A stretch of DNA of 64,000 bases from Patescibacteria group bacterium (GTDB lineage: Bacteria > Patescibacteriota > Patescibacteriia > Buchananbacterales > UBA6539). Under the pieces are notes generated by a model. That model saw only the letters and a program-made list of their open reading frames with translations. It was not told the DNA's origin and searched no databases. Both the position numbers and the translations under genes were made by a program. How positions within the stretch are numbered: position 1 is the first letter of the stretch; each line of letters begins with the position of its first letter. Of the stretch, positions 1 to 41,187 are shown one piece after another. The stretch is taken from contig JAQTYZ010000003.1 in NCBI GenBank assembly GCA_028688055.1, forward strand, positions 66,752 to 130,751, given 5' to 3'.

Positions 1-1
1 G

Positions 2-448
2 GTGGCCAATAATGTGCCAATCTTAAATCGAAGTATCGACATTGGTGGGCTGACGATTACCAAATCAATTGCTAATAGTTTAAATGTCAGTTTGGCGCGG
101 GCGGAACAATTCAAATATGATATCGGGATGAACCCTGATCGCGTTGGCCAAGGATCAGTGCCAAAAACAATTGAGACAACCTTAACGCCGATCGTTGACG
201 AGTTGCGTTATAGCTTAAATCTTTATAAAAGCCAGGGTCAGAAAAATATTGAAAAAATAATTTTAACCGGTGGCTCGTCATTACTTTTAAATTTACCCGA
301 TTATTTAGCGAATGTTTTAGGCCTGCGAGTTTTTTTGGGTGATCCTTGGGCCCGGGTTATCTACCCCGAGGAATTAAAGCCCGTCTTAGATGAAATTGGT
401 CCTCGATTTTCAGTCGCCGTCGGTTTGGCGATGAGAGATATCGAATAA
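2..448 (+). CDS. pilM: Type IV pilus assembly protein PilM, C-terminal fragment (gene starts upstream of window)
   Basis: Actin-like ATPase C-terminal motif ILTGGSSLLLNLPDYL; lies first in a pilM-N-O-B...C order. Confidence 0.7.
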   Translation: MANNVPILNRSIDIGGLTITKSIANSLNVSLARAEQFKYDIGMNPDRVGQGSVPKTIETTLTPIVDELRYSLNLYKSQGQKNIEKIILTGGSSLLLNLPDYLANVLGLRVFLGDPWARVIYPEELKPVLDEIGPRFSVAVGLAMRDIE

Positions 449-451
449 TTT

Positions 452-1603
452 ATGCCGGAAATTAATTTATTACCAAATGAATTAAGGGAGAAAGAAGAGA
501 AGGAATTGGGTTCAAAAAAGAAATCCAAGAATTTTTCGGTTTCACTTTCCAGCCCCCAAAAAGAAAAAACTGAGGCGCCGCTAACAGCACCAAAATTTTC
601 GTTACTTAGCCGCTTGTTTTACAAACCGACCCCTAAAGCCAGATCTGTTCAAGTGGTGGCTGAAGAAAAAGAAATAAAAGAAGATCAGCCACCGGTCGAA
701 GCTAGGGTAGAAAATGTTATTTTATCGGACAGTCAGCCCCTTGATGAAATGGAGCATGATTTATTCATCAATAACAGTCAAGCGCCAACTGAAGGGGTAA
801 GTGAAAAAGGTGAAGCGGATAAAATAATAAATAAAGAAGATGGCCAGAAAATTGATGAGATCAAGGCGGAGCAAAAAAAGACAATTAAGCCAAGGGCTAA
901 GCTGTTTAACTTTTTTAAACGCGCGCCGAAGGTGGTTGATTCAAAAATAGTGGAGGAGGCTGAGGAAAAAGGTGGAGTGCACCATAATAAATCTTTTAGT
1001 CGAAGGCATGACAATAGTGATTCGGTTCTAGACGTCAATTTGATTCCGGCCGATTTGGCTAAGCGTCCCGATCTGGAACTAAAGTCGAAGGCAATTAAAA
1101 GCGGGGTGGCGATTTTTATCACAATTTTGTTAATTATTAGCACTTATCTAGGCATAACTTGGTATCAACTTAAAATTGCTCAGGAAATTAAAAATATTGA
1201 GGGTCAAATTAAAGATTATGATTCAAAAATAGCGGCTAAAGAGAATGAAAAAACATCGGCCCTCGATTTGCAACAGCGGCTAATTTTGGTTAAGCAGCTT
1301 TTTGACGGGCATGTTTATTGGACTAGGTTTTTCGATTTGTTAGAGAAATACACCAGCTCGGAAGTTTACTATACTAATTTTTCAATGGTGGGACAGGATA
1401 AACTGGTAATTTCGGCCGTGGGTATGGATTATCAGTCGGTTGCCCGACAGCTGGTTGCCTTTGAAAATGCAACTGACTTTGTTAAGTCGGTTAGAATTGA
1501 TTCGGCTTCGGCCAAAATTGATTCGGCCGACGGAAAATTTGCCGGCGTTAATTTCAACATTAATTTGGAATTTGTGCCAGGCGTTTTTTTACAGCCCAAC
1601 TAA
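452..1603 (+). CDS. PilN-like bitopic membrane protein with long low-complexity (K/E-rich) N-terminal region
   Basis: Single TM helix (VAIFITILLIISTYLGITWY) followed by coiled-coil/periplasmic domain; position immediately after pilM. Confidence 0.5.
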   Translation: MPEINLLPNELREKEEKELGSKKKSKNFSVSLSSPQKEKTEAPLTAPKFSLLSRLFYKPTPKARSVQVVAEEKEIKEDQPPVEARVENVILSDSQPLDEMEHDLFINNSQAPTEGVSEKGEADKIINKEDGQKIDEIKAEQKKTIKPRAKLFNFFKRAPKVVDSKIVEEAEEKGGVHHNKSFSRRHDNSDSVLDVNLIPADLAKRPDLELKSKAIKSGVAIFITILLIISTYLGITWYQLKIAQEIKNIEGQIKDYDSKIAAKENEKTSALDLQQRLILVKQLFDGHVYWTRFFDLLEKYTSSEVYYTNFSMVGQDKLVISAVGMDYQSVARQLVAFENATDFVKSVRIDSASAKIDSADGKFAGVNFNINLEFVPGVFLQPN

Positions 1604-1606
1604 TTT

Positions 1607-2218
1607 ATGGCAATAAATAAAAAATCCAAAACAGACAAGCTGAGTGGTAATCTACTAAACTTGGCCTTGGCCAAGTACTACAAAATTGGTACGGCTGCCA
1701 TTATTGTTAGCTTAGTTTTGTCGAGTTTTTTCTTGGTGTTGAAGCCAAAATATGAAGAAGTTGGCGTCGGTGGTCAATATAATTTGGACACTTTAAAAAG
1801 TGAACTGGCCAAGCGCCAGAAATATTTGAGCGACATTGAAGCGTTGACTAACAATTACCGTAATATCGGGCAGGGCGAGGTTGCCAGGTTGCATGAAGTA
1901 TTACCGCCAGCAAAGGATGTCGCTGGACTGTTTGTTCAATTCCAATCGTTGGCCGAAAAGAATAATTTATTATTAGCCGGCGTAAATATTAACGAGGTGC
2001 CGGAGGTAATTAAAATCGGCAGCGGTAAATCAATTAATAAACTAAGTATTACCGTTAATCTGGTTGGTAATAATAATGGTAGTTATTCGGAAATCAAGAA
2101 TTTTTTGGCATCGTTGGAAGATAATATTAGACTCTTTGATGTTAGTGCGGTTTATTTCAGTCCCGGTTCGCCTAATTATTCCGTTAGTATGTTTACTTAT
2201 TACACTAAAGGAAGTTAG
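1607..2218 (+). CDS. PilO-like membrane protein
   Basis: N-terminal TM helix, about 200 aa, position after the PilN-like gene. Confidence 0.45.
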   Translation: MAINKKSKTDKLSGNLLNLALAKYYKIGTAAIIVSLVLSSFFLVLKPKYEEVGVGGQYNLDTLKSELAKRQKYLSDIEALTNNYRNIGQGEVARLHEVLPPAKDVAGLFVQFQSLAEKNNLLLAGVNINEVPEVIKIGSGKSINKLSITVNLVGNNNGSYSEIKNFLASLEDNIRLFDVSAVYFSPGSPNYSVSMFTYYTKGS

Positions 2219-2223
2219 ACCTT

Positions 2224-2535
2224 ATGCTGATACCAAGGAAAATGTCATTAAATCGAAAAACGATAATTATCTTTATGGTTGTGTTAATTTTAGCGGTGGC
2301 CGGGTATCTTTTTTATGTTGGTTTTTTGGCTGGTAAAATTGAAATTTTAAAACCGCTAAAAGTTGAGGTTGAGGTTTTGCAGGTACCAAGTATCAACAGT
2401 GATTTTAATGATGACTTTTTGAATCGGCTGCCTTATACTGGCCTAGTCCAGTCGGCAAAATTGCCTATTACCGCTGGTGTCGTCGGTCGAAATAACCCTT
2501 TTAGTGAAATTCCGTTTTCTTTAGGCTTAAAATAA
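2224..2535 (+). CDS. Small membrane-anchored hypothetical protein (possibly PilP-like)
   Basis: 103 aa, N-terminal TM helix, in the pilus operon. Confidence 0.3.
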   Translation: MLIPRKMSLNRKTIIIFMVVLILAVAGYLFYVGFLAGKIEILKPLKVEVEVLQVPSINSDFNDDFLNRLPYTGLVQSAKLPITAGVVGRNNPFSEIPFSLGLK

Positions 2536-2541
2536 AGTTCA

Positions 2542-4272
2542 ATGTTTAAAGATCAACAACAGCTTCTCAATGCCTTAGTTGAAGCCAAACTTTTAAGTGC
2601 TGATCAGGCCAAGGAACTTGAGGCCAAAGCGACCGAAGTCAATCAGACTCCGGAAGATTTAATATTAGATGGTCATTTGGTTGCGGAAGATCGTTTAACG
2701 GAAATCAAAGGGAAATTACTTGATATCCCGGCGGTTGATTTAAAGGGTCGAGAAATTCTTAAAAAGGTTTTGAATCTAATACCGGGCGAAGTATCAGAAA
2801 ATTATCAAATGGTGCCGTTTGAATTAATTGGCAATGAGCTTCACGTCGGTTTGGTCAACCCGCAGAATTTTAAAGCGATTGAAGCCGTGGAATTCTTAGC
2901 TCAGAAATCCGGTTTTAAAGTTAGATATTTCATTATTTCTCAAGCTAGTTTGCATGAAGCTTTTAAAAACTACCGCATTTTAGGCGATGAAGCGAAAGAA
3001 GCGCTGGCTAATTTAAGTGAAGAAACCGCCGTCACGGGCGCAGCTAAAGAGTCGCTGAAAGAAATGGAAGAAGTAATTAAAAGCGCTCCAGTTTCGAAAA
3101 TGGTTTTGGTAATTATTAGACACGCTATTGACGGTCATGCATCGGACATTCATATTGAACCGACGATGAAAGATACTAAAGTACGCTACCGTATTGATGG
3201 AATTTTAAGAACGTCGTTGGTTTTGCCAAAGTACATCCATTCCGCGATTATTGCCCGAATAAAAGTTTTGGCAAATTTAAAACTTGATGAAACCAGAAAG
3301 CCTCAAGACGGCCGGATTAGATTGACAATTGATAACCGGGAAATTGATTTTCGTGTTTCAACCCTGCCTTTGTTTGAAGGTGAAAAAGTTGTTTTGCGAA
3401 TTTTAGATACCGAATCGCAAGTGCCGGGTCTGGAGCAATTAGGTTTTAATTCTGTTTACATTGAAAAAATTAAAGAATCAATCAAACGGCCGCATGGGTT
3501 AATATTGCTAACCGGGCCAACTGGTTCGGGAAAAACCACCACCTTGTATACGGTTTTGACTATGTTGAATCAAGATGGAATTAATATTGTAACACTTGAG
3601 GATCCGATTGAATATTATATTAGTGGTGTTAACCAATCGCAGATTAATCCGGAAGTTGGGTATACTTTTGCTTCGGGTTTGAGAGCAATTTTACGGCAAG
3701 ACCCCAATGTGGTTATGCTTGGTGAAATTCGAGATAATGAAACGACTGAGCTAGTCATTCACGCCAGCTTGACTGGTCATATGATTTTATCCACTCTTCA
3801 TACCAACGACGCTATCGGTGCGATTCCCCGACTGGTGGATTTAGGAGCGGAACCATTTTTGCTGTCATCGGTTTTAAATCTAGTCATTGCCCAGCGTTTG
3901 GCTCGAAAAATTTGTACCTATTGTAAGAAGGAAAGTTCAGTTCCGGAGACTTTGTTAACTAAAGCCAAAACCTTGCTGGCTGAAATCCCGCCGAAATTTT
4001 TGAGTAAAATTGATCCAGCGAAGTTATCTTTTTACAAGGGCGAGGGTTGTGCTCATTGTGGTAATTTGGGGTATCAAGGCCGAACAGCGGTCGCGGAAGT
4101 GATTAATATTACGACTGAAATTAGAGAAATAATGAATAATGGCGCCAAGGTTGAAGAAATTAGAAAGGCTTTAAAAAAACAGGATTTTATTACGCTGGCG
4201 CAGGACTGTCTTGTTAGGGCGCTTGAGGGCGAAACGACGCTTGATGAAGTTGTCCGGATTTCGACTTTGTAA
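2542..4272 (+). CDS. pilB: Type IV pilus assembly ATPase PilB (GspE family)
   Basis: Walker A GPTGSGKTTT, Walker B VVMLGEIRD, His box ILSTLHTND, tetracysteine CTYC...CAHC, N-terminal GspII domain. Confidence 0.9.
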   Translation: MFKDQQQLLNALVEAKLLSADQAKELEAKATEVNQTPEDLILDGHLVAEDRLTEIKGKLLDIPAVDLKGREILKKVLNLIPGEVSENYQMVPFELIGNELHVGLVNPQNFKAIEAVEFLAQKSGFKVRYFIISQASLHEAFKNYRILGDEAKEALANLSEETAVTGAAKESLKEMEEVIKSAPVSKMVLVIIRHAIDGHASDIHIEPTMKDTKVRYRIDGILRTSLVLPKYIHSAIIARIKVLANLKLDETRKPQDGRIRLTIDNREIDFRVSTLPLFEGEKVVLRILDTESQVPGLEQLGFNSVYIEKIKESIKRPHGLILLTGPTGSGKTTTLYTVLTMLNQDGINIVTLEDPIEYYISGVNQSQINPEVGYTFASGLRAILRQDPNVVMLGEIRDNETTELVIHASLTGHMILSTLHTNDAIGAIPRLVDLGAEPFLLSSVLNLVIAQRLARKICTYCKKESSVPETLLTKAKTLLAEIPPKFLSKIDPAKLSFYKGEGCAHCGNLGYQGRTAVAEVINITTEIREIMNNGAKVEEIRKALKKQDFITLAQDCLVRALEGETTLDEVVRISTL

Positions 4273-4317
4273 TAAAATAAACCAAGCAAGTTAATTAATA
4301 AAGATTAGGAGAAATTT

Positions 4318-4695
4318 ATGTCAACGAGCAGAAAAATTCTATTAGTGGAGGATGATGAATTCTTGGCGGAGCTGTATGCGACCAAATTAAACATGGAAGG
4401 TTTTGAAGTTTTTTTGGCCGTTGACGGCGAAAAAGGATTAAAGCTGGCCAAAGAAAAAATGCCTGACTTAGTTTTGTTAGATATTATTTTACCTAAAATG
4501 GACGGTTTTGAAGTTTTAGGAAAAATGAAAATCGATCCGGAAACAAAAAATATCCCGGTCATCTTGTTAACCAATTTGTCGCAAAAAGACGAAGTGAAAA
4601 AGGGCCTTGAGTTAGGAGCAAAGGACTATCTGATTAAGGCTCACTTTATGCCGTCGGAAGTCGTAAAGAAAATTAAGCAAACCTTAGGTGATTAA
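4318..4695 (+). CDS. Stand-alone response-regulator receiver domain (PilH/CheY-like)
   Basis: LLVEDDE..., LLDIILPKMDGFEV receiver motifs; RBS AGGAGA upstream. Confidence 0.85.
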   Translation: MSTSRKILLVEDDEFLAELYATKLNMEGFEVFLAVDGEKGLKLAKEKMPDLVLLDIILPKMDGFEVLGKMKIDPETKNIPVILLTNLSQKDEVKKGLELGAKDYLIKAHFMPSEVVKKIKQTLGD

Positions 4696-4697
4696 AT

Positions 4698-5771
4698 ATG
4701 GAAGCATCATTAGAATTATTTATTAACAAAATTTTGACCACGGCCGCCAAGCGGCAGGCGTCCAATATTCATTTGACCGTTAATTCATATCCGGCCTTAA
4801 GAGTTAATGATGAGTTGCTTGAGTTGACCGATGAACAAATCGTTACCGATTCATTAGTGAAAAATATGGCTAATGACTGGCTTGATGATTCGCAGAAAAA
4901 AATATTGGAAGAAAAAAAGGAAATTATTGTCACCAAAGAAATGGGAAAAAAATTCAGATTAAAAATGAATTTTTTTTATCAGAAAGGTTTTTTATCAATT
5001 GCTCTTAGATTAATTCCCGGTCGGGTGCCACCATTGATAAATTTGGGTTTACCAAAAGCAGTTTACGGTTTAACTGATAAAAAAGCGGGTTTGATTATTG
5101 TGGCCGGACCGTATGGATCTGGCCGGACGACAACGGTGGCATCAATGGTCGAGGAGATAAATAAGAGTCGTAAAGAAAATATTGTCGTTGTTGAAGATCC
5201 GATTGAGTATTTATTTGTTAATCAAAATAGTTTGATTGAACAAAGGCAAGTTGGTCGAGATACCAATTCATTTTCTGACGCGATTGATAATGCGGAAGAG
5301 TCTGATGTCGACATCATCGCCATTGGTGTTACTGAAGAAAAAGGCGTTGTAGAAAAAGTCTTAGAATTTGCCAACTCCGGACGGTTGGCGATTTTAGCAA
5401 TGGAGACAACATCAGTGGTTCAAACAATTCAAGAGTTTTTAGATAATTTTAGTTCGGATCGGCGCGACCGAGCTCAGGTACTGTTGGCTGAAAATCTGTT
5501 AGCCATCATTGTCCAGCGTTTAGTGCCGCGAGTGGGGGGTGGGTTAGTTTTAGCGGCGGAGGTTTTAATTAGCACCGAAGCGGTTAGTTCGTTAATTACC
5601 GAAGGACGGATAAAACAATTAACAACAATATTACAAACATCGCGCGCCGAAGGAATGATCAGTTTGGATCAATCACTGGCGGAGTTAGTTAGGTCGGGTG
5701 AGGTCATGATTAATCATGCCATCGAATATGCGGCTGATCCACAAAGTTTTCGGGCCATTGCTAAAGATTAA
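4698..5771 (+). CDS. PilT-like retraction ATPase paralogue with degenerate catalytic motifs
   Basis: PilT-family architecture; Walker A is GPYGSGRTTT (Lys to Arg); His box TLHT replaced by AMET; Walker B region DVDIIAIGVTEE is atypical. Confidence 0.75.
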   Translation: MEASLELFINKILTTAAKRQASNIHLTVNSYPALRVNDELLELTDEQIVTDSLVKNMANDWLDDSQKKILEEKKEIIVTKEMGKKFRLKMNFFYQKGFLSIALRLIPGRVPPLINLGLPKAVYGLTDKKAGLIIVAGPYGSGRTTTVASMVEEINKSRKENIVVVEDPIEYLFVNQNSLIEQRQVGRDTNSFSDAIDNAEESDVDIIAIGVTEEKGVVEKVLEFANSGRLAILAMETTSVVQTIQEFLDNFSSDRRDRAQVLLAENLLAIIVQRLVPRVGGGLVLAAEVLISTEAVSSLITEGRIKQLTTILQTSRAEGMISLDQSLAELVRSGEVMINHAIEYAADPQSFRAIAKD

Positions 5772-5779
5772 TTACGGTT

Positions 5780-6985
5780 ATGCCTTTTTATCGCTACAAA
5801 GCCAATAATATAGATAATGAGACGGTCGAAGGTATGATCCAGGCCGCTTCTTCAGATGTGGCTGCTGACATTTTGAATGATCAAAATTTGACCATTTTGG
5901 CGTTAAATGAAGAAAAAATTAGTTTTCGCGAGCGAATGTTGCGGGTTTTGAATCGGGTCAAAATTAAAGATTTAGTTATTTTTTCTCGGCAACTATCGGT
6001 CATTGTTTCCGCCACGATTCCCTTGGTTCAAGGCTTAAGAATTTTAGTCACTCAGACCGATAGTCCGGTGCTAAAAACAGTCATTTCCGAAGTGGCTGAC
6101 GACGTCGAGGGTGGCGCTAAATTATCGGCGGCACTCAAAAGGCATTCGGAAATTTTTAGCGATTTTTTTATTAATATTATTAAGTCCGGTGAAACTTCCG
6201 GTAAGCTCGATGACGTTTTGAATTATCTAGCCGATCAGCAAGAAAAGGATTATGATTTAAGTTCAAAGATTAAAGGGGCAATGATTTATCCGATTTTTAT
6301 CGTTAGTGGATTATCAATTGTTGGAACCTTGATGATGATTTTTGTTATTCCCCAACTGACTGCGGTTTTAATTGAAACTGGAGCTCAACTGCCAACTTCG
6401 ACCATCGTTTTGATTGCGGTTAGCAATTTTTTGCAAAAATTTTGGTGGTTGTTAGCCATCGTAATCATTGGTACTTATTTTATACTTCACGCTTTAATTA
6501 AAACCGAAAAAGGTAAATATGCTTGGGACACCATCTTATTGCGTTTGCCAGTTTTTGGTGAATTATTTAGAAAAATTATTTTGGTTCGATTTGCTCGAAG
6601 TTTATATACCTTAACTACCGGCGGCGTGTCATTGACTAAAAGCTTGGAAATTGTTGCCGATGTTGTCGGCAATGCCGTTTTCCATGATTTGATTAGTCAA
6701 ACCGTTAAAGAGGTTGAGGACGGAAATTCAATTGCTACTATTTTTTTGCAGAGTAAAGAGGTACCACCAATGGTTTCGCAGATGTTGAATTTAGGGGAAA
6801 AAACCGGACGGCTCGATGATATCTTGGAAAAATTAGCCCACTTTTATAGCCGCGAAGTTGAAAATTTGGTGGCCAACCTGGTAACGTTGCTTGAGCCAAT
6901 GGTGATGATTCTAATGGGTATCGCGGTCGGTGGATTATTTTCGGCTATTATTTTACCAATGTATAGCCTGGCGTCAAGCCTTTAA
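5780..6985 (+). CDS. pilC: Type IV pilus inner-membrane platform protein PilC (GspF family)
   Basis: 401 aa, two GspF repeats, polytopic membrane protein, follows pilB/pilT. Confidence 0.9.
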   Translation: MPFYRYKANNIDNETVEGMIQAASSDVAADILNDQNLTILALNEEKISFRERMLRVLNRVKIKDLVIFSRQLSVIVSATIPLVQGLRILVTQTDSPVLKTVISEVADDVEGGAKLSAALKRHSEIFSDFFINIIKSGETSGKLDDVLNYLADQQEKDYDLSSKIKGAMIYPIFIVSGLSIVGTLMMIFVIPQLTAVLIETGAQLPTSTIVLIAVSNFLQKFWWLLAIVIIGTYFILHALIKTEKGKYAWDTILLRLPVFGELFRKIILVRFARSLYTLTTGGVSLTKSLEIVADVVGNAVFHDLISQTVKEVEDGNSIATIFLQSKEVPPMVSQMLNLGEKTGRLDDILEKLAHFYSREVENLVANLVTLLEPMVMILMGIAVGGLFSAIILPMYSLASSL

Positions 6986-7003
6986 TTAATTAAGGATAAG
7001 ACC

Positions 7004-7420
7004 ATGAATAATAAAAAACGACTCGGATTTACGTTAGTTGAATTGTTGGTTGTTATCTCCATTATTGGAATTTTATCCAGTATTTCTACCGCTTCAGTTA
7101 ATATCGCGCGACAACGTGCCAGAGATGCCAGACGTCAAGCCGACGCTTCTCAAATTCAATTAGCTTTGTATTTATATTTTGATGATCATTTGTCTTTTCC
7201 AGAGGCTGATATGTTGCCAGAAAATGCTGTTTCAAATTGGACCAATGTCTTGGTTCCTAATTTGAATGGCACTAATGGTGGCAGAAAGTATATGACTAGG
7301 GTGCCGCTTGATCCACTCAATATTGATCCTCATTTTTACGGCTATAATAGTGATGGTAAAGAGTTTATTGTTACTTATTATTTGGAAAATGGCGGCCCGG
7401 CTGAACTTCACGGTTATTAA
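7004..7420 (+). CDS. Prepilin-type N-terminal cleavage/methylation domain protein (pilin/pseudopilin)
   Basis: N-terminus KRLGFTLVELLVVISIIGIL (G/FTLxE class III signal). Confidence 0.7.
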   Translation: MNNKKRLGFTLVELLVVISIIGILSSISTASVNIARQRARDARRQADASQIQLALYLYFDDHLSFPEADMLPENAVSNWTNVLVPNLNGTNGGRKYMTRVPLDPLNIDPHFYGYNSDGKEFIVTYYLENGGPAELHGY

Positions 7421-7441
7421 TTTGTGCCTTTGTTGAAAAGT

Positions 7442-7450
7442 TGGTATAAT
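7442..7450 (+). promoter_or_regulatory. Extended -10 promoter element TGGTATAAT for major pilin gene 1
   Basis: TGnTATAAT about 70 nt upstream of ATG; same element and same downstream 5' UTR (ACCAAACGAAAGGGGGTGAGACAATG) recur at 12786. Confidence 0.55.
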
Positions 7451-7517
7451 TAATTAGTTGTTGATAACTAAAAATTTTGGTTTATTATAAACCAACCAAA
7501 CGAAAGGGGGTGAGACA

Positions 7518-7949
7518 ATGAGAAAGAAAGGTTTTACACTTATCGAACTGTTAGTGGTAATTGCCATCATCGGTCTATTATCGACCTTGGCAGTTGTCGC
7601 TTTGAATTCCGCCCGATTGAAGGCGAGAGATGCTAAGCGCGTAGCTGATATTAAACAGGTTCAGACAGCATTGGAGCTTTATTTTAATGATCAACAGAAT
7701 TATCCAGGTACCACTGGTACTTTAGGCACAGCTTCAATGGTTTGTCTTGGTACAGCCGGTTTTGGTACCTCAGGCTGTGGCGGCGCTTATATGGGATTAG
7801 TCCCTTCGAACCCAACTCCAAACGGAGCGGTTTATGTATATTCAGCGGATGGTACTTCAGGAACATACTCAATCACCTTCAGTCTGGAAGGAACGACTGG
7901 TGGTTTAGGTTCAGGTGCTCACACTGCTTCACAAGACGGGTTGGAATAA
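7518..7949 (+). CDS. Major type IV pilin, copy 1
   Basis: [21 protein letters not shown] prepilin leader; Gly/Thr/Ser-rich variable centre; conserved C-terminus [19 protein letters not shown]; RBS GGGGGTGA. Confidence 0.8.
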
Positions 7950-7974
7950 TTTATACAATACACCTATTAACAAT

Positions 7975-7999
7975 AAAACCCCAGCCTGGGGTTTTATTG
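7975..7999 (+). terminator. Rho-independent terminator
   Basis: AAAACCCCAGCCTGGGGTTTT hairpin plus T-run. Confidence 0.6.
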
Positions 8000-8035
8000 T
8001 TGTGTTAGACGTCATTTCAGGTTAAAATTACTATC

Positions 8036-10303
8036 ATGACACCTAAGATCCAAAAAATATTTTTGCCCGTTATATTCTTTTTTTTATTGCTGGTTTTTTT
8101 TGCCCCCTACCTGAATGGGAGCAATATTTTATATGAGGGTGACTATACGGGCAGTGATTTAACTGAGTTGAATTTACCTTTTAGATACTGGGCGGCCGAA
8201 CAAATCAAACATGGAGATTTGCCGCTTTGGAATGATCAAATATCAGCTGGTTTTCCGCAGCTCGCTGAGGGCCAAACGGGAGTTTTTTATCCCTTTAATT
8301 TAATTTTTTTTATTTTATTGCCAATCGGCTTCGCGGTGCTGGCAACTTATTTTTTAAATTTTCTCTTGGCTGGAATTTTTACCTTTATTTATTGTCGAAG
8401 CTTGAATATCAGTCAGGTCGGAAGTTGGCTGGCGGCGACGGCCTTTAGTTTTAGCGGTTGGTTTGTCTTTAGACTAAAACATCTTAATTTGATTAATGCG
8501 GCGATTTGGCTGCCATTAATTTTTTATTTAATTGAAAAATTAATTGTTTCAAAACGTAAAGATTTGTTACTCGTCTTGTTGTCAGGTGTTTATACGATTC
8601 AGTTCTTTGCCGGTCATCCTCAAATCAGTTACATCTCAGTGCTAGCTGGGCTGGCCTATTATTTGATTAGATTATTAGGAAACGACGAATTTAAAAAATC
8701 TGGACGCTGGCTAAAAATTTATAAAATTATATTTCCCTGGATGGTAATTGGTTTTTTGACGCTGGGAATGACGGCCATCCAACTTTTACCAACTTACCAA
8801 TTATCCAAATTATCAGCCAGAGGTAGCTGGTCTGACTTTAATAATTCTGTTGGCACTTTAGTCTTTCAGCCTGTAGAATTTTTAACCGCTATCTATCCTT
8901 ATATATTTGGTAATCCAGCTAACGGCAGTTATCAAGGTTTTGATTTGGGATTCAAATCTGGTTTCTGGGAGGACAGCGTTTACTTCGGTCTACTGCCATT
9001 ATTTTTTTCATTTATTGCTTTAATATTTGTTTGGCGCAAAGAAAAAATTATTAGACAGCTGTCGTTTTTTTTGGTTTTTTGTTTATTTTTTATCCTAGCC
9101 GGATCTAATCCTTGGTTTAAATGGGTCTGGAGTGTCTTACCCTCTTACCAAGTATTTCGTTTTCATCAGCGATTCTTGTTACCATTTATCTTGATAATGT
9201 CGGTTTTGTCAGCCCTGGGATTTGATTATTGTGCCAAAAAGATTGCCAACGTGGGGAAAACCGGCAAGGCGGCCCCACGTAATCTCAATAGCGGTTGGTC
9301 GATTATTGTTATTTTGATTGTTAGTATTGAGTTGCTTTTTATGTCGCTGCAGTTTATTGGCACGATGCCAACTACCTATTTAACCGCCGAGCCTGAAAGC
9401 GTTGAATGGTTAAAGGCTGATCAGGATCAGTTTCGAGTTGCTAGTTTATATTATCAGCTGTCATGGAATTTTGTTTTCTCAAATTCTAATGGTTGGCTTA
9501 GCACGCCAGATTTATACCTAGAAAATCGTGAGTTGGTACAACCTAATTTAAATTTATTTTATGGTCTTAGTACTTATAACGATCGTGGTTGGAATGAGGG
9601 TGGGCAGCTCGACCGTCGCTTGGCAGCACTCTTAACGGTGATTGATAAAAATATCACTCTGGATGTCACCTCCCACGCCGTAATAATTAGTCCTAATGTT
9701 TTGAAAGTTTTAGGTTTGCAAAATGTCAAGTATTTATTGTCATATTATCCGGTCCGTAGCAATCACTTAGCGGAAGTTAAATCGATTAATCAATTATTTT
9801 TGCCAACTTTGCATATTTATCAAAATCCCTATTTTTTAAACAGGGCCTTTATGGTTTTCCAGTCCAAGCCGGTTAATGCTGACGCTGACGAAATAGCAAG
9901 TTTGTTTGCTGATGATTTTGATCCGTCAAAAGTGGTAACGAGCGCGGCTGAGCTTGGTTTAAAACCAGCCCTTAAAGCTCAGTCCCAAGTCGAAGTTATT
10001 AGTCATCAGGCTAATAAATCAGCTTATCGTGTTAAAACTGATAGTGATGGTTTGCTGTTTATTAGCCAGCTGTATTATCCGGGCTGGATTGCCAAAGTTG
10101 ACGGTAAAAAGGTTGACCTGGAGCGTGTTAATGGGGCATACACTGGCCTAATGATTCCGAGTGGCGAACATCGAGTTGAGCTGAAATATGACCCCAAGTC
10201 TTTCGAGCTTGGGTTAACAATTTCTTTGCTAACACTAATATTGATTATTATTTATTTTGCGATGAAACTTTTGGTTTCAATGCGATCAGTTTTTAAATTA
10301 TGA
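8036..10303 (+). CDS. YfhO-family polytopic membrane protein (GT-C fold glycosyltransferase-like)
   Basis: 755 aa, many TM helices; C-terminal YYPGWIAKVDGKKVDLERVNGAYTGLMIPSGEHRVELKYDP is typical of the YfhO family. Confidence 0.65.
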   Translation: MTPKIQKIFLPVIFFFLLLVFFAPYLNGSNILYEGDYTGSDLTELNLPFRYWAAEQIKHGDLPLWNDQISAGFPQLAEGQTGVFYPFNLIFFILLPIGFAVLATYFLNFLLAGIFTFIYCRSLNISQVGSWLAATAFSFSGWFVFRLKHLNLINAAIWLPLIFYLIEKLIVSKRKDLLLVLLSGVYTIQFFAGHPQISYISVLAGLAYYLIRLLGNDEFKKSGRWLKIYKIIFPWMVIGFLTLGMTAIQLLPTYQLSKLSARGSWSDFNNSVGTLVFQPVEFLTAIYPYIFGNPANGSYQGFDLGFKSGFWEDSVYFGLLPLFFSFIALIFVWRKEKIIRQLSFFLVFCLFFILAGSNPWFKWVWSVLPSYQVFRFHQRFLLPFILIMSVLSALGFDYCAKKIANVGKTGKAAPRNLNSGWSIIVILIVSIELLFMSLQFIGTMPTTYLTAEPESVEWLKADQDQFRVASLYYQLSWNFVFSNSNGWLSTPDLYLENRELVQPNLNLFYGLSTYNDRGWNEGGQLDRRLAALLTVIDKNITLDVTSHAVIISPNVLKVLGLQNVKYLLSYYPVRSNHLAEVKSINQLFLPTLHIYQNPYFLNRAFMVFQSKPVNADADEIASLFADDFDPSKVVTSAAELGLKPALKAQSQVEVISHQANKSAYRVKTDSDGLLFISQLYYPGWIAKVDGKKVDLERVNGAYTGLMIPSGEHRVELKYDPKSFELGLTISLLTLILIIIYFAMKLLVSMRSVFKL

Positions 10304-10944
10304 TTAACAAAGAAGCTTTAGATAAAATTCACCGAAATGTTCCGCCTGATTATTATCAGTCTGGGATCAAGCATAATTATTTACAACGATATTGGCATCA
10401 CCGACGTTTTGCAGTAATTAGTCGTGAATTAAAAAAATTAAATTTAAGCGCTCCCTTGTTGGATTTGGGTTGCCACGGCGGTGACTTAACCAACGTCTTG
10501 AGTCAAGCCGCGCAGGTTGATATTTATGGTATTGATATCTCGGAAAAATCAATTGAATTTGCTAAAAGGCGTTTCCCAAACATCAATTTTAGTGTTCAGG
10601 ACTTTCCCGGTCAAAAGCAATTTACTGATAATTATTTTCAAGCCATCACCGCCTTTGATGTGATGGAGCATATCCCTGATACCCCTAAAGTCCTTGATGA
10701 AATTAAAAGATTGCTAAAACCCGGTGGCTATTTTATTATGGCTATTCCCAATGAAAATTTACTTTTTAAAGTAGTCTGGTTGTTCTGGACGAGCTTTAAA
10801 GGTCAAGTTTGGGAGGGCGTTCATGTCCACGATTTTAAGATGGAAGGCTTTGCGGAATTTGAAAAGCAGGGTTTTGAAAAAATTGTTGAGCTAAAAATTA
10901 TTTTTGGGATGTGGTGGTTTTTAATTTTTCGCGTTAAAAAATAA
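10300..10944 (+). CDS. Class I SAM-dependent methyltransferase
   Basis: LDLGCHGGDLT (motif I), LKPGGYFIM; overlaps upstream stop by 4 nt. Confidence 0.75.
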   Translation: MINKEALDKIHRNVPPDYYQSGIKHNYLQRYWHHRRFAVISRELKKLNLSAPLLDLGCHGGDLTNVLSQAAQVDIYGIDISEKSIEFAKRRFPNINFSVQDFPGQKQFTDNYFQAITAFDVMEHIPDTPKVLDEIKRLLKPGGYFIMAIPNENLLFKVVWLFWTSFKGQVWEGVHVHDFKMEGFAEFEKQGFEKIVELKIIFGMWWFLIFRVKK

Positions 10945-10947
10945 ATA

Positions 10948-12765
10948 ATGAAAACACTTAAAGCTAATAAAAATTTTTTGTTATTCGGTTTGGTTTTTTT
11001 TGTTGCAATGTCGGTCTATATTATGACCTTAGCGCCGTCCATTACCATGGAAGACAGCGGTGAATTAGTGACGGCGGCTTATACACTCGGGATTCCTCAT
11101 CCGTCCGGTTATCCATTGTTTGTCCTCTTAGGCAAGCTATTTACTTTTTTACCATTGGGTACTATTGCTTGGCGAGTTAATTTAATGTCGGCTTGTTTTG
11201 CATCGCTCGCAGTAGCTTTGCTTTATCTAATCCTTGAAAAAACGACAAAAAATAAAATTATTTCCGTTGGTAGCGCATTAATGTTAGCTTTTAGCCCGGT
11301 TTACTGGTCACAGAGCGTAATCACGGAGGTGTATGCTTTAAATATTTTTTTTGTGGCGGTGTTATTGTACCTGTGTTTGTTGTATTGGGAAACGAAGAAT
11401 AAGAAATTGTTGCTCTGGTTTTCTTTTTGGTACGGCCTGAGCTTAACAAATCACTCGATGAATATTTTGTTAGCACCGGCTTTTGCCGCTTTTTTTATAT
11501 ATGCTGATTGGAAAATTCTAAAAAAATTTAAGTTAATAGTGGCCATGCTGGGTCTTTTTGTACTCGGGTTGTCCGTTTATTTTTATATCCCGTGGCGGGC
11601 GTTTCAGTTGCCAATTTTTAATTGGGGTCCGATTACAACTTGGAGCGATGTTTGGAAACATCTTAGTCGAGCGCAGTACAATGATTTTTCACCCCTGAGT
11701 AATGAATATCGCAAAATTGGTTTGGTCATCTCTTTTTTTTATGAGATCTACCAACAATTTCATTTGCCGACGTTGATTTTAGCTTTTGGTGGCGCTATAT
11801 ATTGGTGGTCAAAAAATCGTCCGATCGCGCTTTTAACGTCGGGAATATTTTTATTAAACAGTTTGGGGATTATTTTTTTAAGAAAATTCGGCTGGGGGAT
11901 AAGTGTCGATTTTACTTATCGAGTATATTATTTACCGGCCCTGATGATTGTTATATTTTGGTTTGCCTCTATTGTGGCTTTTGGTTTAGATAAAATAAAA
12001 TTTTACTTTAAAGATCGTCCGAACATTATTAAAACCCTGACAGTTGTCATTTATATCTTAATCATTTCTTTACCAGCTAGTTTTGTCCTGGCCAATTATC
12101 AGCGTGAAGATATGAGCAGCTTTTGGCTTAATTATGATTATACTAGAAATCTGCTCAATAGTTTGGAGCCAAATAGCATTTATTATTTTGCCTACGATGG
12201 TAGTTTGCAGGGCGATACGGAGTTATTTAGTCTGATCTATTTTAAAGATGTTGAAGGATTAAGACCAGACGTCAGCATCGTGACGGAGCAGCAATTTTTT
12301 TATCTTGATTTATATTTAGCGTTGCCGGCTGATTATTATCAATTAAGTTTTGAAGATCGGCGAAAAGTATTGATGAGTCTACTGACTAAGATAAAAAATC
12401 GTCCCCTCTATGCTAATTACGCCTTAACCTCAACTAACAATAACGAGCACCTTTATAGTTTATCCAACGGTTATGCCTATAAAGTCTTTTCCAATATTGC
12501 TGAGGCGAGAAAATCGAAAGTTGGTTTATTTTTAGCGCCAATCAGAGGGCTCGATGAAATGGCCGAGCAGGGTGATAATACCGTTTTAGGATTTATATCG
12601 CATTACTATTATAATTTGAGCGCGTACTACTTGACTTCCGGATCGACCGCTCAATACCAAAAATATTTAATGAAAGCTTTTAATCTTGATAACGCGCCAT
12701 TTAATCATGAGTATCGACGGTTTCTTGATTATCGCGCCGAGTGGCTTCGTAATGATGGTGGGTAA
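10948..12765 (+). CDS. DUF2723 (TMEM260-like) polytopic membrane protein, putative GT-C glycosyltransferase
   Basis: N-terminal MEDSGELVTAAYTLGIPHPSGYPLF signature of DUF2723; about 12 TM helices. Confidence 0.6.
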   Translation: MKTLKANKNFLLFGLVFFVAMSVYIMTLAPSITMEDSGELVTAAYTLGIPHPSGYPLFVLLGKLFTFLPLGTIAWRVNLMSACFASLAVALLYLILEKTTKNKIISVGSALMLAFSPVYWSQSVITEVYALNIFFVAVLLYLCLLYWETKNKKLLLWFSFWYGLSLTNHSMNILLAPAFAAFFIYADWKILKKFKLIVAMLGLFVLGLSVYFYIPWRAFQLPIFNWGPITTWSDVWKHLSRAQYNDFSPLSNEYRKIGLVISFFYEIYQQFHLPTLILAFGGAIYWWSKNRPIALLTSGIFLLNSLGIIFLRKFGWGISVDFTYRVYYLPALMIVIFWFASIVAFGLDKIKFYFKDRPNIIKTLTVVIYILIISLPASFVLANYQREDMSSFWLNYDYTRNLLNSLEPNSIYYFAYDGSLQGDTELFSLIYFKDVEGLRPDVSIVTEQQFFYLDLYLALPADYYQLSFEDRRKVLMSLLTKIKNRPLYANYALTSTNNNEHLYSLSNGYAYKVFSNIAEARKSKVGLFLAPIRGLDEMAEQGDNTVLGFISHYYYNLSAYYLTSGSTAQYQKYLMKAFNLDNAPFNHEYRRFLDYRAEWLRNDGG

Positions 12766-12785
12766 TTGTTAGGTGATTAAGTTTG

Positions 12786-12794
12786 TGGTATAAT
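12786..12794 (+). promoter_or_regulatory. Extended -10 promoter TGGTATAAT for major pilin gene 2
   Basis: Same promoter and 5' UTR block as at 7442. Confidence 0.55.
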
Positions 12795-12842
12795 AAATTT
12801 ATAATTTTTTTGGATTACAACCAAACGAAAGGGGGTGAGACA

Positions 12843-13307
12843 ATGAGAAAGAAAGGTTTTACACTTATCGAACTGTTAGTGGTAATTGCCATCATCGGTC
12901 TATTATCGACCTTGGCAGTTGTCGCTTTGAATTCCGCCCGATTGAAGGCGAGAGATGCTAAGCGCGTAGCTGATATTAAACAGGTTCAGACAGCGTTGGA
13001 GCTTTATTTTAATGACAATAACAGTTATCCGATTATGGGTGGGGCGCCGATTGTGTTAGGGTCAGGTGCCACCTGTTTAGGTGACGGTGGTTTTGGCACT
13101 AGTTGTTCGGCGCCAGTCTATATGGGTTTATTGCCAACCAACCCAACGCCAAATGGTGCTGATTATTCTTATACTTCTGTTTCAGAGGGTGGCGGTGATT
13201 GTGGCTCGGAGCCTTGCTCAACATATGCCATTACCTTTACACTTGAAGGAACTACGGGTGGCTTAGGTTCAGGCGCTCACACGGCCTCACAGGATGGTTT
13301 ACAGTAA
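12843..13307 (+). CDS. Major type IV pilin, copy 2 (true start at internal ATG 12843, not the 12783 ORF start)
   Basis: Identical 5' UTR/RBS and first ~55 codons as pilin 1; divergent middle; conserved C-terminus [24 protein letters not shown]. Confidence 0.8.
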   Translation: MRKKGFTLIELLVVIAIIGLLSTLAVVALNSARLKARDAKRVADIKQVQTALELYFNDNNSYPIMGGAPIVLGSGATCLGDGGFGTSCSAPVYMGLLPTNPTPNGADYSYTSVSEGGGDCGSEPCSTYAITFTLEGTTGGLGSGAHTASQDGLQ

Positions 13308-13327
13308 AAATCAGTTCGGAATTTTAG

Positions 13328-13357
13328 ATCCCGCCCAATAATTTGGGCGGGATTTTT
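13328..13357 (+). terminator. Rho-independent terminator
   Basis: ATCCCGCCCAATAATTTGGGCGGGATTTTT. Confidence 0.6.
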
Positions 13358-13407
13358 AGACTCCAAAAATGTTTGCCTATTTTGCTTAATCAAGGTAAAA
13401 TTAAGGT

Positions 13408-14157
13408 ATGTTTGAACTATTTATTTTTATTTTTGGCCTGGTAATTGGTAGTTTTTTGAACGTTGTTATTTTGCGGTTAGAAAAAGCGGAATCATTTATG
13501 AGTGGTCGTTCGCGCTGTCCAAACTGTAAACATAATTTAGCTTGGTATGACAATATTCCGCTATTGAGTTTTATTTTCTTGCGCGCTAATTGTCGTTATT
13601 GCCACACAAAAATTTCTTGGCAATACCCAATCGTTGAGTTAGCAACGGCTGTGTTGTTTAGTCTATTATATTATAAATTTGATTTTACTGACCATTTTTT
13701 TTCTTTTTTACTCTTAACCTGTTTTTTGATAATTATCTTTGTCTACGATCTAAAATATTATTTAATTCCAGACGTTGTCTCAATACCAGCAATTATTGTT
13801 GCTCTGCTTCTGAATATTTTTTTACACCTTAGTTTGACCAGCGTCATCCTGGGCGCCATTGTCGGCGGGTTGTTTTTTGCTCTTCAATATTGGGTTTCCC
13901 GGGGAGTTTGGGTTGGTGATGGCGATATTCGTTTAGGTATTTTAATGGGTTTAATTTTGGGCTTTAAAATTTTGTTGGTGGCGCTTTTTTTGGCGTACTT
14001 GGTTGGTGCGATGGTGGGAGTAAGTCTGTTGCTAGTCAAAAAAAAGCAGCTGTCATCAGCGCTTCCCTTTGGACCGTTTTTAACCTTAGCGACTTTTGTG
14101 GCGATGATTTGGGGCGAAAAAATTTTATTTTGGTACTTAAATTTAGTTTACTACTAA
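13408..14157 (+). CDS. pilD: Prepilin peptidase PilD (A24 family)
   Basis: LIGSFLNVVILRL, CPNC...CRYC zinc motif, polytopic, DGDIRLG Asp box. Confidence 0.85.
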   Translation: MFELFIFIFGLVIGSFLNVVILRLEKAESFMSGRSRCPNCKHNLAWYDNIPLLSFIFLRANCRYCHTKISWQYPIVELATAVLFSLLYYKFDFTDHFFSFLLLTCFLIIIFVYDLKYYLIPDVVSIPAIIVALLLNIFLHLSLTSVILGAIVGGLFFALQYWVSRGVWVGDGDIRLGILMGLILGFKILLVALFLAYLVGAMVGVSLLLVKKKQLSSALPFGPFLTLATFVAMIWGEKILFWYLNLVYY

Positions 14158-16032: not shown

Positions 16033-16977
16033 ATGCATCAAGCGAATAAACAATCTGGCATCGTTTTAATTCTAGCGGTTTTAATTATTGGCGCGGTTTT
16101 AGTGACGGCTGTTGTTTTTAGTAATCTAGTTATTTCGCAAATTCAGCAATCGCGTCTGATTGATCAATCAATTGCCTCCTATTATTTAGCGGAAAGCGGT
16201 GCTGAACGCGCGCTCTATCAAACGAGGCGATTACAAGCTGTTAAATCGGCTGATTGTTCAAAAATTGTTAGCGGTTCGACTTGTCAAAACAGTGGGAATA
16301 ATTATGGTTTTTGTTCTTTGACTAATGATAAAATTGCTTGCATTACCGATAATCAAGGCGCTTTAGCCGTCGGTGGCGGTTGGAATATTATTGTTAATAA
16401 TGAAAAAGATTCAACGGTAAATTTAAATGTTGGTGATTCATTCCAGTTGGATTTATTCAGCCCCTATCAGGGTGGTGATTTTCAAACCAATGTTCAATCT
16501 TTTTTGGTTACTAGTACTATTACCGGTGGGGCTAAGCTTTACGCGGAACTTACTAATTTAACTTGGTTGGTTGGCGGAACGATTAATTGTCCGCTTGATA
16601 CGTTTGTGCCAGCGCGTCCGGCCATCAGCAAGGGTCAGATCAATTTGGATTCTCAAACTGGATATTCATCAACGGGCTATTTAACCAAACTGGCCAATGA
16701 TCCCGAAATTAATCCAAACTGTTCTTATGTCTTGCGCTTAAGTAATGTTTTGGACGGAGCTGAACCGGGTCAATTTACGGTTAGTATTTATAATAAAGCG
16801 ATTGATGTTGATCCGACGACTGATAAGTTAGAAATACCGAGCCGGTTAGTTATTGATTCCCAAGCAACGGTTGGCCGTTCCCAACAAAGTGTCAGAATAA
16901 AATCGCCGATTAGGCCGCCCCTTTCCGGGCTATATGATTTTGTCCTTTTTTCAGAGCAGGAAGTTGTTAAGAATTAA
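16033..16977 (+). CDS. Pilus-associated hypothetical protein (PilX-like N-terminal hydrophobic segment)
   Basis: N-terminal SGIVLILAVLIIGAVLV TM segment; last gene of the pilin cluster. Confidence 0.4.
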   Translation: MHQANKQSGIVLILAVLIIGAVLVTAVVFSNLVISQIQQSRLIDQSIASYYLAESGAERALYQTRRLQAVKSADCSKIVSGSTCQNSGNNYGFCSLTNDKIACITDNQGALAVGGGWNIIVNNEKDSTVNLNVGDSFQLDLFSPYQGGDFQTNVQSFLVTSTITGGAKLYAELTNLTWLVGGTINCPLDTFVPARPAISKGQINLDSQTGYSSTGYLTKLANDPEINPNCSYVLRLSNVLDGAEPGQFTVSIYNKAIDVDPTTDKLEIPSRLVIDSQATVGRSQQSVRIKSPIRPPLSGLYDFVLFSEQEVVKN

Positions 16978-31456: not shown

Positions 31457-31486
31457 AAAATTAGTTTAAGATTAGGAGAGTTAAGC

Positions 31487-31540
31487 TCCGAGGTAGCTCA
31501 ACGGTAGAGTCCCGCCACGGCGGGATTAATCCATTGGTCC
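31487..31540 (+). pseudogene. Degenerate 5' fragment of tRNA-Asn (acceptor and D-arm intact, anticodon stem replaced by a GC mini-hairpin)
   Basis: TCCGAGGTAGCTCAACGGTAGAG is identical to the intact tRNA-Asn at 31807; it is followed by TCCCGCCACGGCGGGA and TTAATCCATTGGTCC. Confidence 0.5.
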
Positions 31541-31548
31541 TTGATTAT

Positions 31549-31794
31549 ATGAACTATTTCGTTTATATTATTAAGAATCAACAAGGCGCAATTTATATCG
31601 GTCAGACAAAGAATATTTTTGTCAGACTGAAGGTTCACAATTCGAACGAGGTTTTTTCAACGAAAAATCAAGGTCCCTGGAAACTTATTTATTTTGAAGA
31701 GTTCACATCTCGATCAGACGCCATGGCACGAGAAAAGCAGTTAAAAAGTTTTAAGGGTGGTAATGCTCTAAAAAAATTAATTGATAAAGTTTAA
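31549..31794 (+). CDS. Small GIY-YIG nuclease family protein (YhbQ/UPF0213-like); ATG 31549 preferred over the TTG at 31534
   Basis: YFVYIIKN...AIYIGQT (GIY/YIG), conserved Arg and EKQLK helix; 81 aa. Confidence 0.75.
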   Translation: MNYFVYIIKNQQGAIYIGQTKNIFVRLKVHNSNEVFSTKNQGPWKLIYFEEFTSRSDAMAREKQLKSFKGGNALKKLIDKV

Positions 31795-31806
31795 GGAGAG
31801 TTAAGC

Positions 31807-31878
31807 TCCGAGGTAGCTCAACGGTAGAGCAGTGGACTGTTAATCCATTGGTTCCGGGTTCGAATCCCGGCCTCGGAG
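31807..31878 (+). tRNA. tRNA-Asn (anticodon GTT), intronless
   Basis: U1:A72 and G73 as in bacterial tRNA-Asn; D-loop AACGGTA, anticodon loop CUGUUAA, T-loop TTCGAAT; 72 nt. Confidence 0.8.
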
Positions 31879-32103
31879 GAGGCTGGACGCGTTCCCGGAG
31901 ACCGGTTTGAGGCAGTCAACTTAGCCAAAAATAGTAGTCGTCAGTTTGTGTCCAATCCTAGGTGAGAAATCAGTTTAGAACCAGATAGCAAATTAGAGTC
32001 CAGTGATTAGGTAATACATAAGTGTTCTCGGCGACTGGCTCCGCCGATCAAAGGCTTGAAAATTTAAAACTGAATATTTATACTTCAAAAAAGAGTCATG
32101 TGC

Positions 32104-32396
32104 TCCGAGGTAGCTCAATGGTAGAGCAGCGGACTGTAGAATGATGCAGCCCCTAGGAGAAATCCTAAGGTGAAAATTTCGGGATAACGGTGAAGGCTAC
32201 GTTCGTCAGTTGACGGATATGCGAACACCGTGGGAACTCTGATCCGCCAGATGGCAGATCGGGGAGCGCCGTAGAGACTAGATACCGAAACACCTACATC
32301 CAAAATTGGATACGGTGATGATATAGTCCATCCCCCAACGAAAGTTGAGGACAAGATGTAATCCGTTGGTTCCGGGTCCGAGTCCCGGCCTCGGAG
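32104..32396 (+). tRNA. tRNA-Asn (GTT) interrupted by a 221-nt group I intron (32138-32358) in the anticodon loop
   Basis: Exons rebuild the same scaffold as the 31807 gene with anticodon loop CUGU|UAA; intron follows a U, ends with G, and carries R-like AGAGACTAGA and S-like GATATAGTCC (P7 pairing) plus a GAAA-capped P9. Confidence 0.7.
32138..32358 (+). other. Group I self-splicing intron (no ORF)
   Basis: P1 CUGU/GCAG with U.G at the 5' splice site, conserved R/S elements, omega-G at 32358. Confidence 0.7.
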
Positions 32397-41169: not shown

Positions 41170-41187
41170 CAGTGTCTTTACTTCAAG

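Follow-up and report, generated by a model that had tools for sequence, protein, structure and literature searches.

How do two major pilin genes within one type IV pilus (T4P) gene cluster come to have almost the same DNA over their first 58 codons and to be so different beyond them? The question is raised by pilA1 (7518-7949) and pilA2 (12843-13307), both on the + strand of a 64-kb stretch of DNA – the window, at 40% G+C – from a metagenome-assembled genome (MAG) of the Patescibacteria (candidate phyla radiation, CPR). pilA1 encodes a complete type IV major pilin of 143 aa with matches to PF07963, PF08334 and TIGR02532, and pilA2 a complete major pilin paralogue of 154 aa with a match to PF07963. 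A preliminary description of this DNA had offered either recent gene conversion or a cassette-style pilin variation system as the explanation. Here, we find it highly probable that pilA1 and pilA2 are ancient, complete and separately transcribed major T4P paralogues, that a 198-bp tract at their 5′ ends has recently been gene-converted – as it has been recurrently in relatives – and that no silent-cassette system is involved. Type IV pili are the main known means of host attachment and DNA uptake in Patescibacteria, and the variation and decoration of these pili are largely unexplored.

The near-identical block extends from 7493 to 7690 in the first copy and from 12818 to 13015 in the second, both on the + strand, and 197 of its 198 nt are the same. 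Starting 25 nt upstream of the ATG and ending with codon 58, it takes in the Shine-Dalgarno (SD) sequence GAAAGGGGGTGA, the prepilin leader and all of the α1 helix; because the helix of the PilA1 structure model ends at residue 59 and the tract at codon 58, the converted segment corresponds to the ribosome-binding site, the leader and the filament-core helix. The sole difference inside it is a silent GCA/GCG change at coding nt 153, just as the preliminary description had noted, and the near-identity that it had reported for the first ~170 coding nt extends to codon 58, where a second silent change at nt 174 forms the 3′ edge and identity collapses beyond. At the 5′ edge it had gone too far: the first mismatch is at 7492/12817, so that identity begins 25 nt and not ~70 nt upstream of the ATG, and the promoter and 5′ untranslated region (UTR) are not identical beyond position -25, where only the 9-mer TGGTATAAT is common to both genes, starting 76 nt before the ATG in one and 57 nt in the other. 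A maximum-chi-square scan of the aligned loci recovered exactly 7493-7690 as its best segment, with 197/198 matches inside and 228/420 outside, a value reached in none of 200 permutations.

Synonymous sites separate the block from the rest of the two genes. Over codons 1-58 the proportion of differing synonymous sites (pS) is 0.05 (2.0 of 42.3 sites) and that of nonsynonymous sites (pN) is 0, with 58/58 N-terminal residues identical between PilA1 and PilA2, as compared with a pS of 0.71 and a pN of 0.36 in the middle region and a pS of 0.74 and a pN of 0.06 in the last 28 codons. The centres, earlier said to differ completely, are in fact alignable, with 28 of 56 aligned residues identical, 55% nucleotide identity, and common motifs such as CLG, GFGTS and YMGL-P-NPTPNGA. 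The sequences do become similar again at their ends, with 25/28 residues identical and 76% nucleotide identity over the last 28 codons. This tail was tried as a second conversion tract in the window and rejected, its pS being 0.74 and its longest identical run 11 nt.

The same arrangement, in which two pilin genes enclose a membrane-glycosyltransferase module and pilD follows the second of them, is present in the window and in six other Patescibacteria contigs (L002, L004, L008, L081, L082 and L100) found through scans of genome and metagenome collections and contig look-ups. For comparison between genomes, the N-terminal block was taken as the 54 codons that start at the GFTLIE motif. At the protein level it is 87-100% identical among the window and the six relatives, and between-genome nucleotide identity is 69-86%. 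The pS of this block between the two flanking pilins of the same genome forms a series, from 0.05 in the window and 0.05 in L081 through 0.20 in L004 and 0.30 in L100 to 0.59 in L008, 0.67 in L002 and 0.68 in L082, from which the background expected at this level of protein conservation is ~80% nucleotide identity. L081, L004 and L100, each an independent assembly, have within-genome nucleotide identities of 98%, 94% and 91%, respectively. The end of the tract is also similarly placed: its last codon is 58 in the window and 56 in L081, and in L004 divergence starts at about codon 59-60. In L004 the mismatches within the block cluster in codons 13-30, a distribution which suggests an older or patchy conversion event. 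As a separate observation, the last 28 codons of the L081 pair (~10346-10429 vs 16400-16483) have a pS of 0.37, as compared with 0.61-0.85 in the other genomes, suggesting that in L081 the 3′ end may also have been converted, in a separate and earlier event.

The 198-bp tract has thus recently been homogenised between two direct copies by gene conversion, a non-reciprocal homologous recombination, and the first of the two earlier suggestions stands: pS is 0.05 in the block and 0.71-0.74 elsewhere, and in the relatives it reaches 0.59-0.68. The same segment has been homogenised independently, and at different times, in related lineages, amounting to concerted evolution of the constant region. 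The duplication itself is old, since an additional C-x(4-8)-C-x(1-3)-Y-x-[IL]-x-F motif before the last strand is present in 7/7 pilA2 orthologues and in no pilA1 orthologue; the latter carry two cysteines, except for that of L100, which has six. In PilA2 of the window this is a Cys-x5-Cys loop at ~13200-13217 (residues ~120-125), directly before the last β-strand. The N-terminal blocks therefore group by genome and the head domains, with their orthologue-specific markers, by orthologue, a pattern characteristic of paralogues kept in concert by gene conversion that recurs lineage by lineage.

PilB and PilC are ~63-75% identical across the seven genomes. In a separate comparison, PilA1 of the window was found to be 85% identical to its counterparts in L081 and L082, above the values for PilB (65-70%), PilC (74%) and PilT (59-63%), and it is unusual for a surface-exposed major pilin to be more conserved than its own assembly machinery. 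Recent transfer does not account for this, because the N-terminal block DNA is only 76-80% identical. L081 and L082 were also considered as closer relatives of the window on the basis of PilA1 and rejected, since PilB and PilC, at 65-74%, are no closer than those of other genomes; L081 and L082 consequently give no strain-level resolution.

Could the block have been preserved without any recombination? Its protein sequence is 87-100% identical in all genomes examined and the SD sequence GAAAGG(G/A)GGTG is conserved in every genome aligned, so that purifying selection on the leader, the α1 helix and the translation-initiation region, possibly with some constraint at the nucleotide level, is a natural thought. 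Yet equal protein conservation goes with a pS of 0.59-0.68 in L008, L002 and L082 and with ~78% nucleotide identity between genomes, and the probability of two or fewer synonymous differences in the block under a background pS of 0.57-0.68 is 6e-13 to 7e-18. Within the window itself, the 3′ tail is conserved in protein and saturated at synonymous sites, which means that purifying selection on protein alone cannot explain the 5′ block; moreover, the non-coding bases from -25 to -1 that vary between genomes are identical in the window's two copies. We regard selection without exchange as exceedingly improbable. A recent duplication of the whole gene, followed by very rapid diversification of the head under positive selection, would suit the fast evolution often seen in surface-exposed pilin heads and the high pN (0.36) of the middle region. 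But outside the block synonymous sites are saturated, both in the central region and in the tail whose protein sequence is conserved; positive selection cannot produce this, and it excludes recent whole-gene duplication with fast head evolution. Also against it are the pilin/module/pilin synteny of seven genomes whose PilB and PilC are only ~63-75% identical, and the PilA2-specific cysteine loop conserved in all seven; overall we consider this history very unlikely.

The identity might instead have been produced or exaggerated by an assembler that merged two similar repeats or mis-threaded them; in favour of this are the origin of the window from a MAG and the difficulty that ~200-nt repeats pose to short-read assemblers. 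The contig nevertheless kept the mismatch inside the block, its flanks are distinct and in frame on both sides, copies at the ~80% background identity would have no shared k-mers to mis-thread, and independent assemblies of other samples repeat the pattern at 98%, 94% and 91% (L081, L004 and L100). These features make an artefact unlikely, with only a small chance left to it. Programmed variation of the Neisseria pilE/pilS kind, in which one copy serves as a reservoir recombined into an expression locus, was the second suggestion of the preliminary description, and it has in its favour two pilin copies with a common constant 5′ block and divergent variable parts, between which recombination has demonstrably occurred. 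But neither copy is truncated and each possesses a -10 box, an SD, an ATG, a leader and a terminator, and what was exchanged is the constant region (-25 to codon 58), the variable region having a pS of 0.71 and having long gone unexchanged. No stretch of identity in the 3′ tail exceeds 11 nt, too short for a second homology arm by which heads could be swapped, and the two-gene layout has been stably inherited over seven genomes with orthologue-specific heads. There is no G-quadruplex (G4) motif of the form G3+N1-7 ×4 on either strand of the whole window, and tblastn and blastn searches of the 64-kb window with the whole pilins and their variable parts found no truncated or promoterless fragment, the only other matches being an unrelated 138-aa pilin-like gene and one minor pilin; the further silent cassettes that it had been proposed to look for in the genome are therefore absent from this part of it. 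Nor is there a sign of an invertible switch of the type of Moraxella tfpQ/I with Piv: the copies are direct, no significant inverted repeats other than the terminator occur in 6900-13500, and no recombinase-like open reading frame (ORF) was seen within 1-22000, where the ORFs all look like pil genes, ligA, gatCA and similar genes, to judge by Pfam/NCBIfam matches in some cases and by the translations in the others. A cassette system is in our judgement a very remote prospect, and that half of the earlier proposal is set aside.

Several points nonetheless weigh against the account of ancient paralogues with a recently converted tract. The N-terminal blocks of the relatives are about equally far from those of the window (~0.73-0.82 nucleotide identity), so that neither the direction nor the date of the event can be called; inference of the donor copy from these blocks was tried and dropped for this reason. 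The assembly is metagenomic, and in principle an assembler might inflate the likeness of two repeats that are already similar. RecA-type recombination is inefficient at only ~80% identity, a difficulty for the start of a lineage's first conversion. We also infer, rather than observe, the co-assembly of the two pilins, the expression of both, and their glycosylation; in particular, the YfhO-like protein encoded between them matches S. mutans PgfM1/PgfM2 weakly and at the C-terminus only, with a PgfM1 score of 54 bits against a cut-off of 1400.

The tract ends at the point where too little similarity is left for the two copies to pair, and once the copies are identical further exchange should become easier. 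PilD, encoded adjacent to pilA2, would process both pilins and the same PilB/PilC machine would polymerise both, and with an identical α1 core PilA1 and PilA2 may be interchangeable within a filament. The cell could in this way build pili that are either mixed or of alternative kinds and that present two distinct surfaces; the two membrane glycosyltransferase-like enzymes whose genes stand between the pilins probably add O-linked glycans to these surfaces. The conversion may also be a mere by-product of homology preserved by selection on α1.

The proteins themselves have the features of T4a-like major pilins. Both begin MRKKG|FTLIELLVV, a class III signal peptide in which a short, basic leader ends in Gly (-1) and the mature part has Phe at +1 and Glu at +5, and match PF07963 (E ~7e-9) and, above its cut-off, TIGR02532. 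Structure modelling covered PilA1, whose AlphaFold2 (AF2) model (pLDDT 88.5) has a helix at residues 8-59 followed by six strands forming a β head, giving the ‘lollipop’ fold of type IV pilins. In a Foldseek search of the PDB with this model the best match was full-length PAK pilin (1oqw; probability 0.96, TM 0.49), with a weak E-value of 0.14. The strong SD, the promoter-like box and the terminator that each gene has of its own are consistent with the role of an abundant filament subunit.

With its -10 box, SD, ATG, prepilin leader and strong hairpin, each of pilA1 and pilA2 looks like an independent transcription unit. The extended -10 box of pilA1, an exact match to TGGTATAAT at 7442-7450 (+), starts 76 nt before the ATG and is conserved upstream of pilA1 orthologues. 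pilA2 has a promoter-like site at 12766-12794 (+) that scored 10/12 in a promoter scan, consisting of TTGTTA, a 17-nt spacer and a TG-extended TATAAT; its TGGTATAAT box is at 12786-12794, 57 nt before the ATG. This 9-mer, the only one that the two genes have in common upstream of the block, stands at different spacing in each, and because a third copy occurs in the window at 53037 we take it to be a generic extended -10 consensus. Promoter consensus matches in the window as a whole were not above chance (26 vs 20.0 ± 4.4 expected), and neither were terminator consensus matches (8 vs 6.8 ± 2.8 expected), a scan that missed both pilin terminator hairpins. These were established by folding: one after pilA1 at 7968-8002 (+), with a perfect 16-nt inverted repeat and a minimum free energy (MFE) of -20.6 kcal/mol (z = -5.6), and one with a U-run after pilA2 at 13326-13355 (+), with an MFE of -23.0 kcal/mol (z = -5.8).

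Upstream alignments and folding revealed two elements on the + strand that are specific to the 5′ UTR of pilA1 – the motif TTGTTGATAACTAAAA at 7458-7473 and a small hairpin at 7477-7495 – and both are absent upstream of pilA2. Among eight pilA1 orthologues compared (those of the window, L081, L082, L084, L004, L008, L002 and L100), a motif of the form [AC]TGTT[GA]ATAACT..AAAA lies just past the -10 box in six (window, L081, L082, L004, L008 and L002), and a small hairpin ~15 nt before the SD is found in all eight, its stem sequences differing and its z-scores ranging from -1.5 to -4.5. The pilA2 5′ UTRs are shorter and mostly without structure. RNAalifold predicted no structure from a MAFFT alignment of the pilA1 5′ UTRs, because the stems were misaligned; the hairpins appeared upon individual folding. 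An Rfam search of the pilin 5′ UTRs and their surroundings found no known RNA family. The conversion tract begins inside the last 3 nt of the pilA1 hairpin. These differences between the 5′ UTRs suggest that pilA1 and pilA2 are separately regulated, and that pilA1 may have post-transcriptional or transcriptional control of its own.

Both pilin genes lie inside the T4P gene cluster, which is complete, is transcribed on the + strand, and has the order pilMNO, pilB, response regulator, pilT, pilC, a pilin-like gene, pilA1, the three genes for YfhO-like, methyltransferase and TMEM260-like proteins, pilA2, pilD, and minor pilins. pilM (2-448, +) is followed by pilN and pilO, and a 103-aa ORF (+) lies between pilO and pilB. 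pilB (2542-4272, +) encodes a TIGR02538 protein (532 bits) and is followed by the response regulator gene, pilT (4698-5771, +; TIGR01420) and pilC (5780-6985, +). The third pilin-like gene (7004-7420, +; 138 aa; PF07963) is outside the converted pair, its N-terminal block having 58% nucleotide identity to that of pilA2 and a pS of 0.86. Downstream of pilA2 are the prepilin peptidase gene pilD (13408-14157, +; Pfam PF06750 and PF01478), four minor-pilin-like genes, and then ligA and gatCA. The genes for PilB, PilT, PilC and PilD all fall within 1-14157, placing the two pilins in genomic association with T4P machinery, and the window contains one PilB/PilC/PilT/PilD set only.

The genes between the pilins encode a YfhO-family membrane glycosyltransferase-like protein (8036-10303, +; Pfam PF09586, E = 7e-25), a S-adenosylmethionine (SAM)-dependent methyltransferase (10300-10944, +; Pfam Methyltransf_23/31/11, E ~1e-21) and a TMEM260-like/PMT_2 protein O-mannosyltransferase-like membrane protein (10948-12765, +; Pfam PF11028, E = 2.5e-37, and PF13231). 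The TMEM260-like protein matches human TMEM260 (PDB 9rql), a solved protein O-mannosyltransferase, with E = 1.5e-36. In each of the seven genomes the two pilins have a TMEM260-like gene between them, so that a membrane glycosyltransferase-like gene is in conserved synteny with them; the position of the YfhO-like gene is also conserved in relatives, and the methyltransferase gene is found in L008 and L082, L002 having none. Taken as a unit, the module (8036-12765 in the window, and in L002, L004, L008, L081, L082 and L100) comprises the YfhO-like gene, an optional gene for a 448-aa protein, the optional methyltransferase gene and the TMEM260-like gene. Elsewhere, L005 and L016 have the module, or the TMEM260-like gene alone, with one pilin only, and in the more distant L003, L011, L014 and L019 pilA directly adjoins pilD. 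Family membership and conserved synteny suggest a glycosylation role for the genes between the pilins, and the module is a candidate for a dedicated pilin O-glycosylation system in Patescibacteria.

A broader interpretation is that pilA1, the module and pilA2 form a conserved Patescibacteria pilus-surface diversification module, in which recurrent conversion maintains α1, the heads are mosaic and glycosylated, and the 198-bp repeats allow deletion and duplication. We hold this to be doubtful as it stands. If true, two differently glycosylated heads would be mixed in one filament, whose mosaic surface would serve in phage defence or in the recognition of hosts, and the 198-bp direct repeats would allow deletion or duplication of the 5.3-kb unit at the population level; deletion of the unit would leave a chimeric single pilin with the glycosylation genes lost, a rough phase switch working in one direction only. 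Gene conversion between paralogues is a textbook mechanism, and what is mildly new here is a tract recurrently restricted to the α1 helix over several Patescibacteria lineages, together with the conserved pilin/module/pilin layout; a literature search on concerted evolution of pilin N-termini returned no directly relevant paper. The value of the locus is descriptive and contextual, not conceptual. It is a clean natural case of concerted evolution confined to a filament-core helix, in several lineages and with an internal control in the same gene, and the conserved association of its two major pilins with a pair of membrane glycosyltransferase-like genes makes pilin O-glycosylation testable.

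Several features elsewhere in the window deserve mention. An intact tRNA-Asn gene at 31806-31879 is surrounded by fragments of itself within 31474-32399: its 5′ part recurs as a perfect 36-nt copy at 31474-31509 and as an 81% copy at 32091-32126, and its 3′ part as a 90% copy at 32359-32399, ~230 nt from the 81% 5′ copy. ARAGORN and Rfam called only one tRNA in 31474-32399, and the fragments could be an intron-containing second tRNA or the remnants of an integration site. The LOOT RNA family (RF03000) is matched over its full length at 42771-42888 (+), with 80 bits as compared with a gathering score of 46.4. A direct repeat of 125 nt with 86% identity is found at 40563-40687 and 41050-41174, with a spacing of 487 nt, and (GA)n-containing repeats with similar flanks (TTxCGAGAGA...GTACTT) are found 6.2 kb apart, at 35949-35982 and 42123-42156.

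Concerted evolution by partial gene conversion is known among bacterial paralogues, including the tuf genes, rRNA operons and the opa/omp families. The pilin pair resembles these in its lineage-specific homogenisation, with synonymous divergence near zero in the tract and saturated outside it, and the mechanism is the same; what is particular to the pilin pair is a tract that matches a single structural element, the α1 helix, time after time. The pilE-pilS system of Neisseria gonorrhoeae and N. meningitidis is similar in its RecA-type non-reciprocal recombination and in having a constant N-terminal and a variable C-terminal region. The pilS copies of Neisseria are promoterless and are without the constant 5′ region, and a G4 element assists the conversion that carries variable segments from them into pilE. 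In contrast, the window has just two complete copies, the segment converted is the constant one, and there is no G4 motif, so that the pair differs from pilE/pilS in every defining feature tested.

The position of the glycosyltransferase-like genes recalls the pilA-tfpO and pilA-tfpW-tfpX loci of Pseudomonas aeruginosa, where the major pilin gene is likewise followed directly by a membrane glycosyltransferase gene. TfpW modifies pilin as a D-Araf glycosyltransferase and oligosaccharyltransferase, and such glycosylation protects from pilus-specific phages (bioRxiv 10.1101/2020.04.19.049825, 10.1101/150227). Unlike P. aeruginosa, with one pilA per strain, the window has two pilins, the enzymes belong to the YfhO and TMEM260-like/PMT_2 families, and glycosylation is a supposition. 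Within the Patescibacteria, Saccharibacteria TM7x also has two major pilins, PilA1 and PilA2, both highly expressed; they are encoded at separate loci with separate PilB ATPases and form thick and thin pili, and T4P are central to the episymbiotic lifestyle of TM7x (PMC11623550). The window differs in having one locus and one PilB/PilC/PilT set.

In Streptococcus sanguinis, the α1 segments of PilE1 and PilE2 are identical; the two proteins diverge in one loop and at the tail, and are incorporated stochastically into the same pilus (Anger et al. 2023, PMC10628169). There, as here, two complete major pilin genes with an identical α1 lie in one T4P cluster with a single machinery, and the differences are confined to head loops and tail – an 8-aa loop in S. 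sanguinis, and an 11-residue length difference that contains the cysteine loop in the window. The S. sanguinis genes are adjacent and highly similar throughout, whereas the window's heads are ~50% identical and 4.9 kb of glycosyltransferase-like genes stands between them, and co-polymerisation, observed in S. sanguinis, is a prediction for the window's pair. The S. sanguinis pilus is nevertheless the closest experimentally characterised analogue of pilA1 and pilA2.

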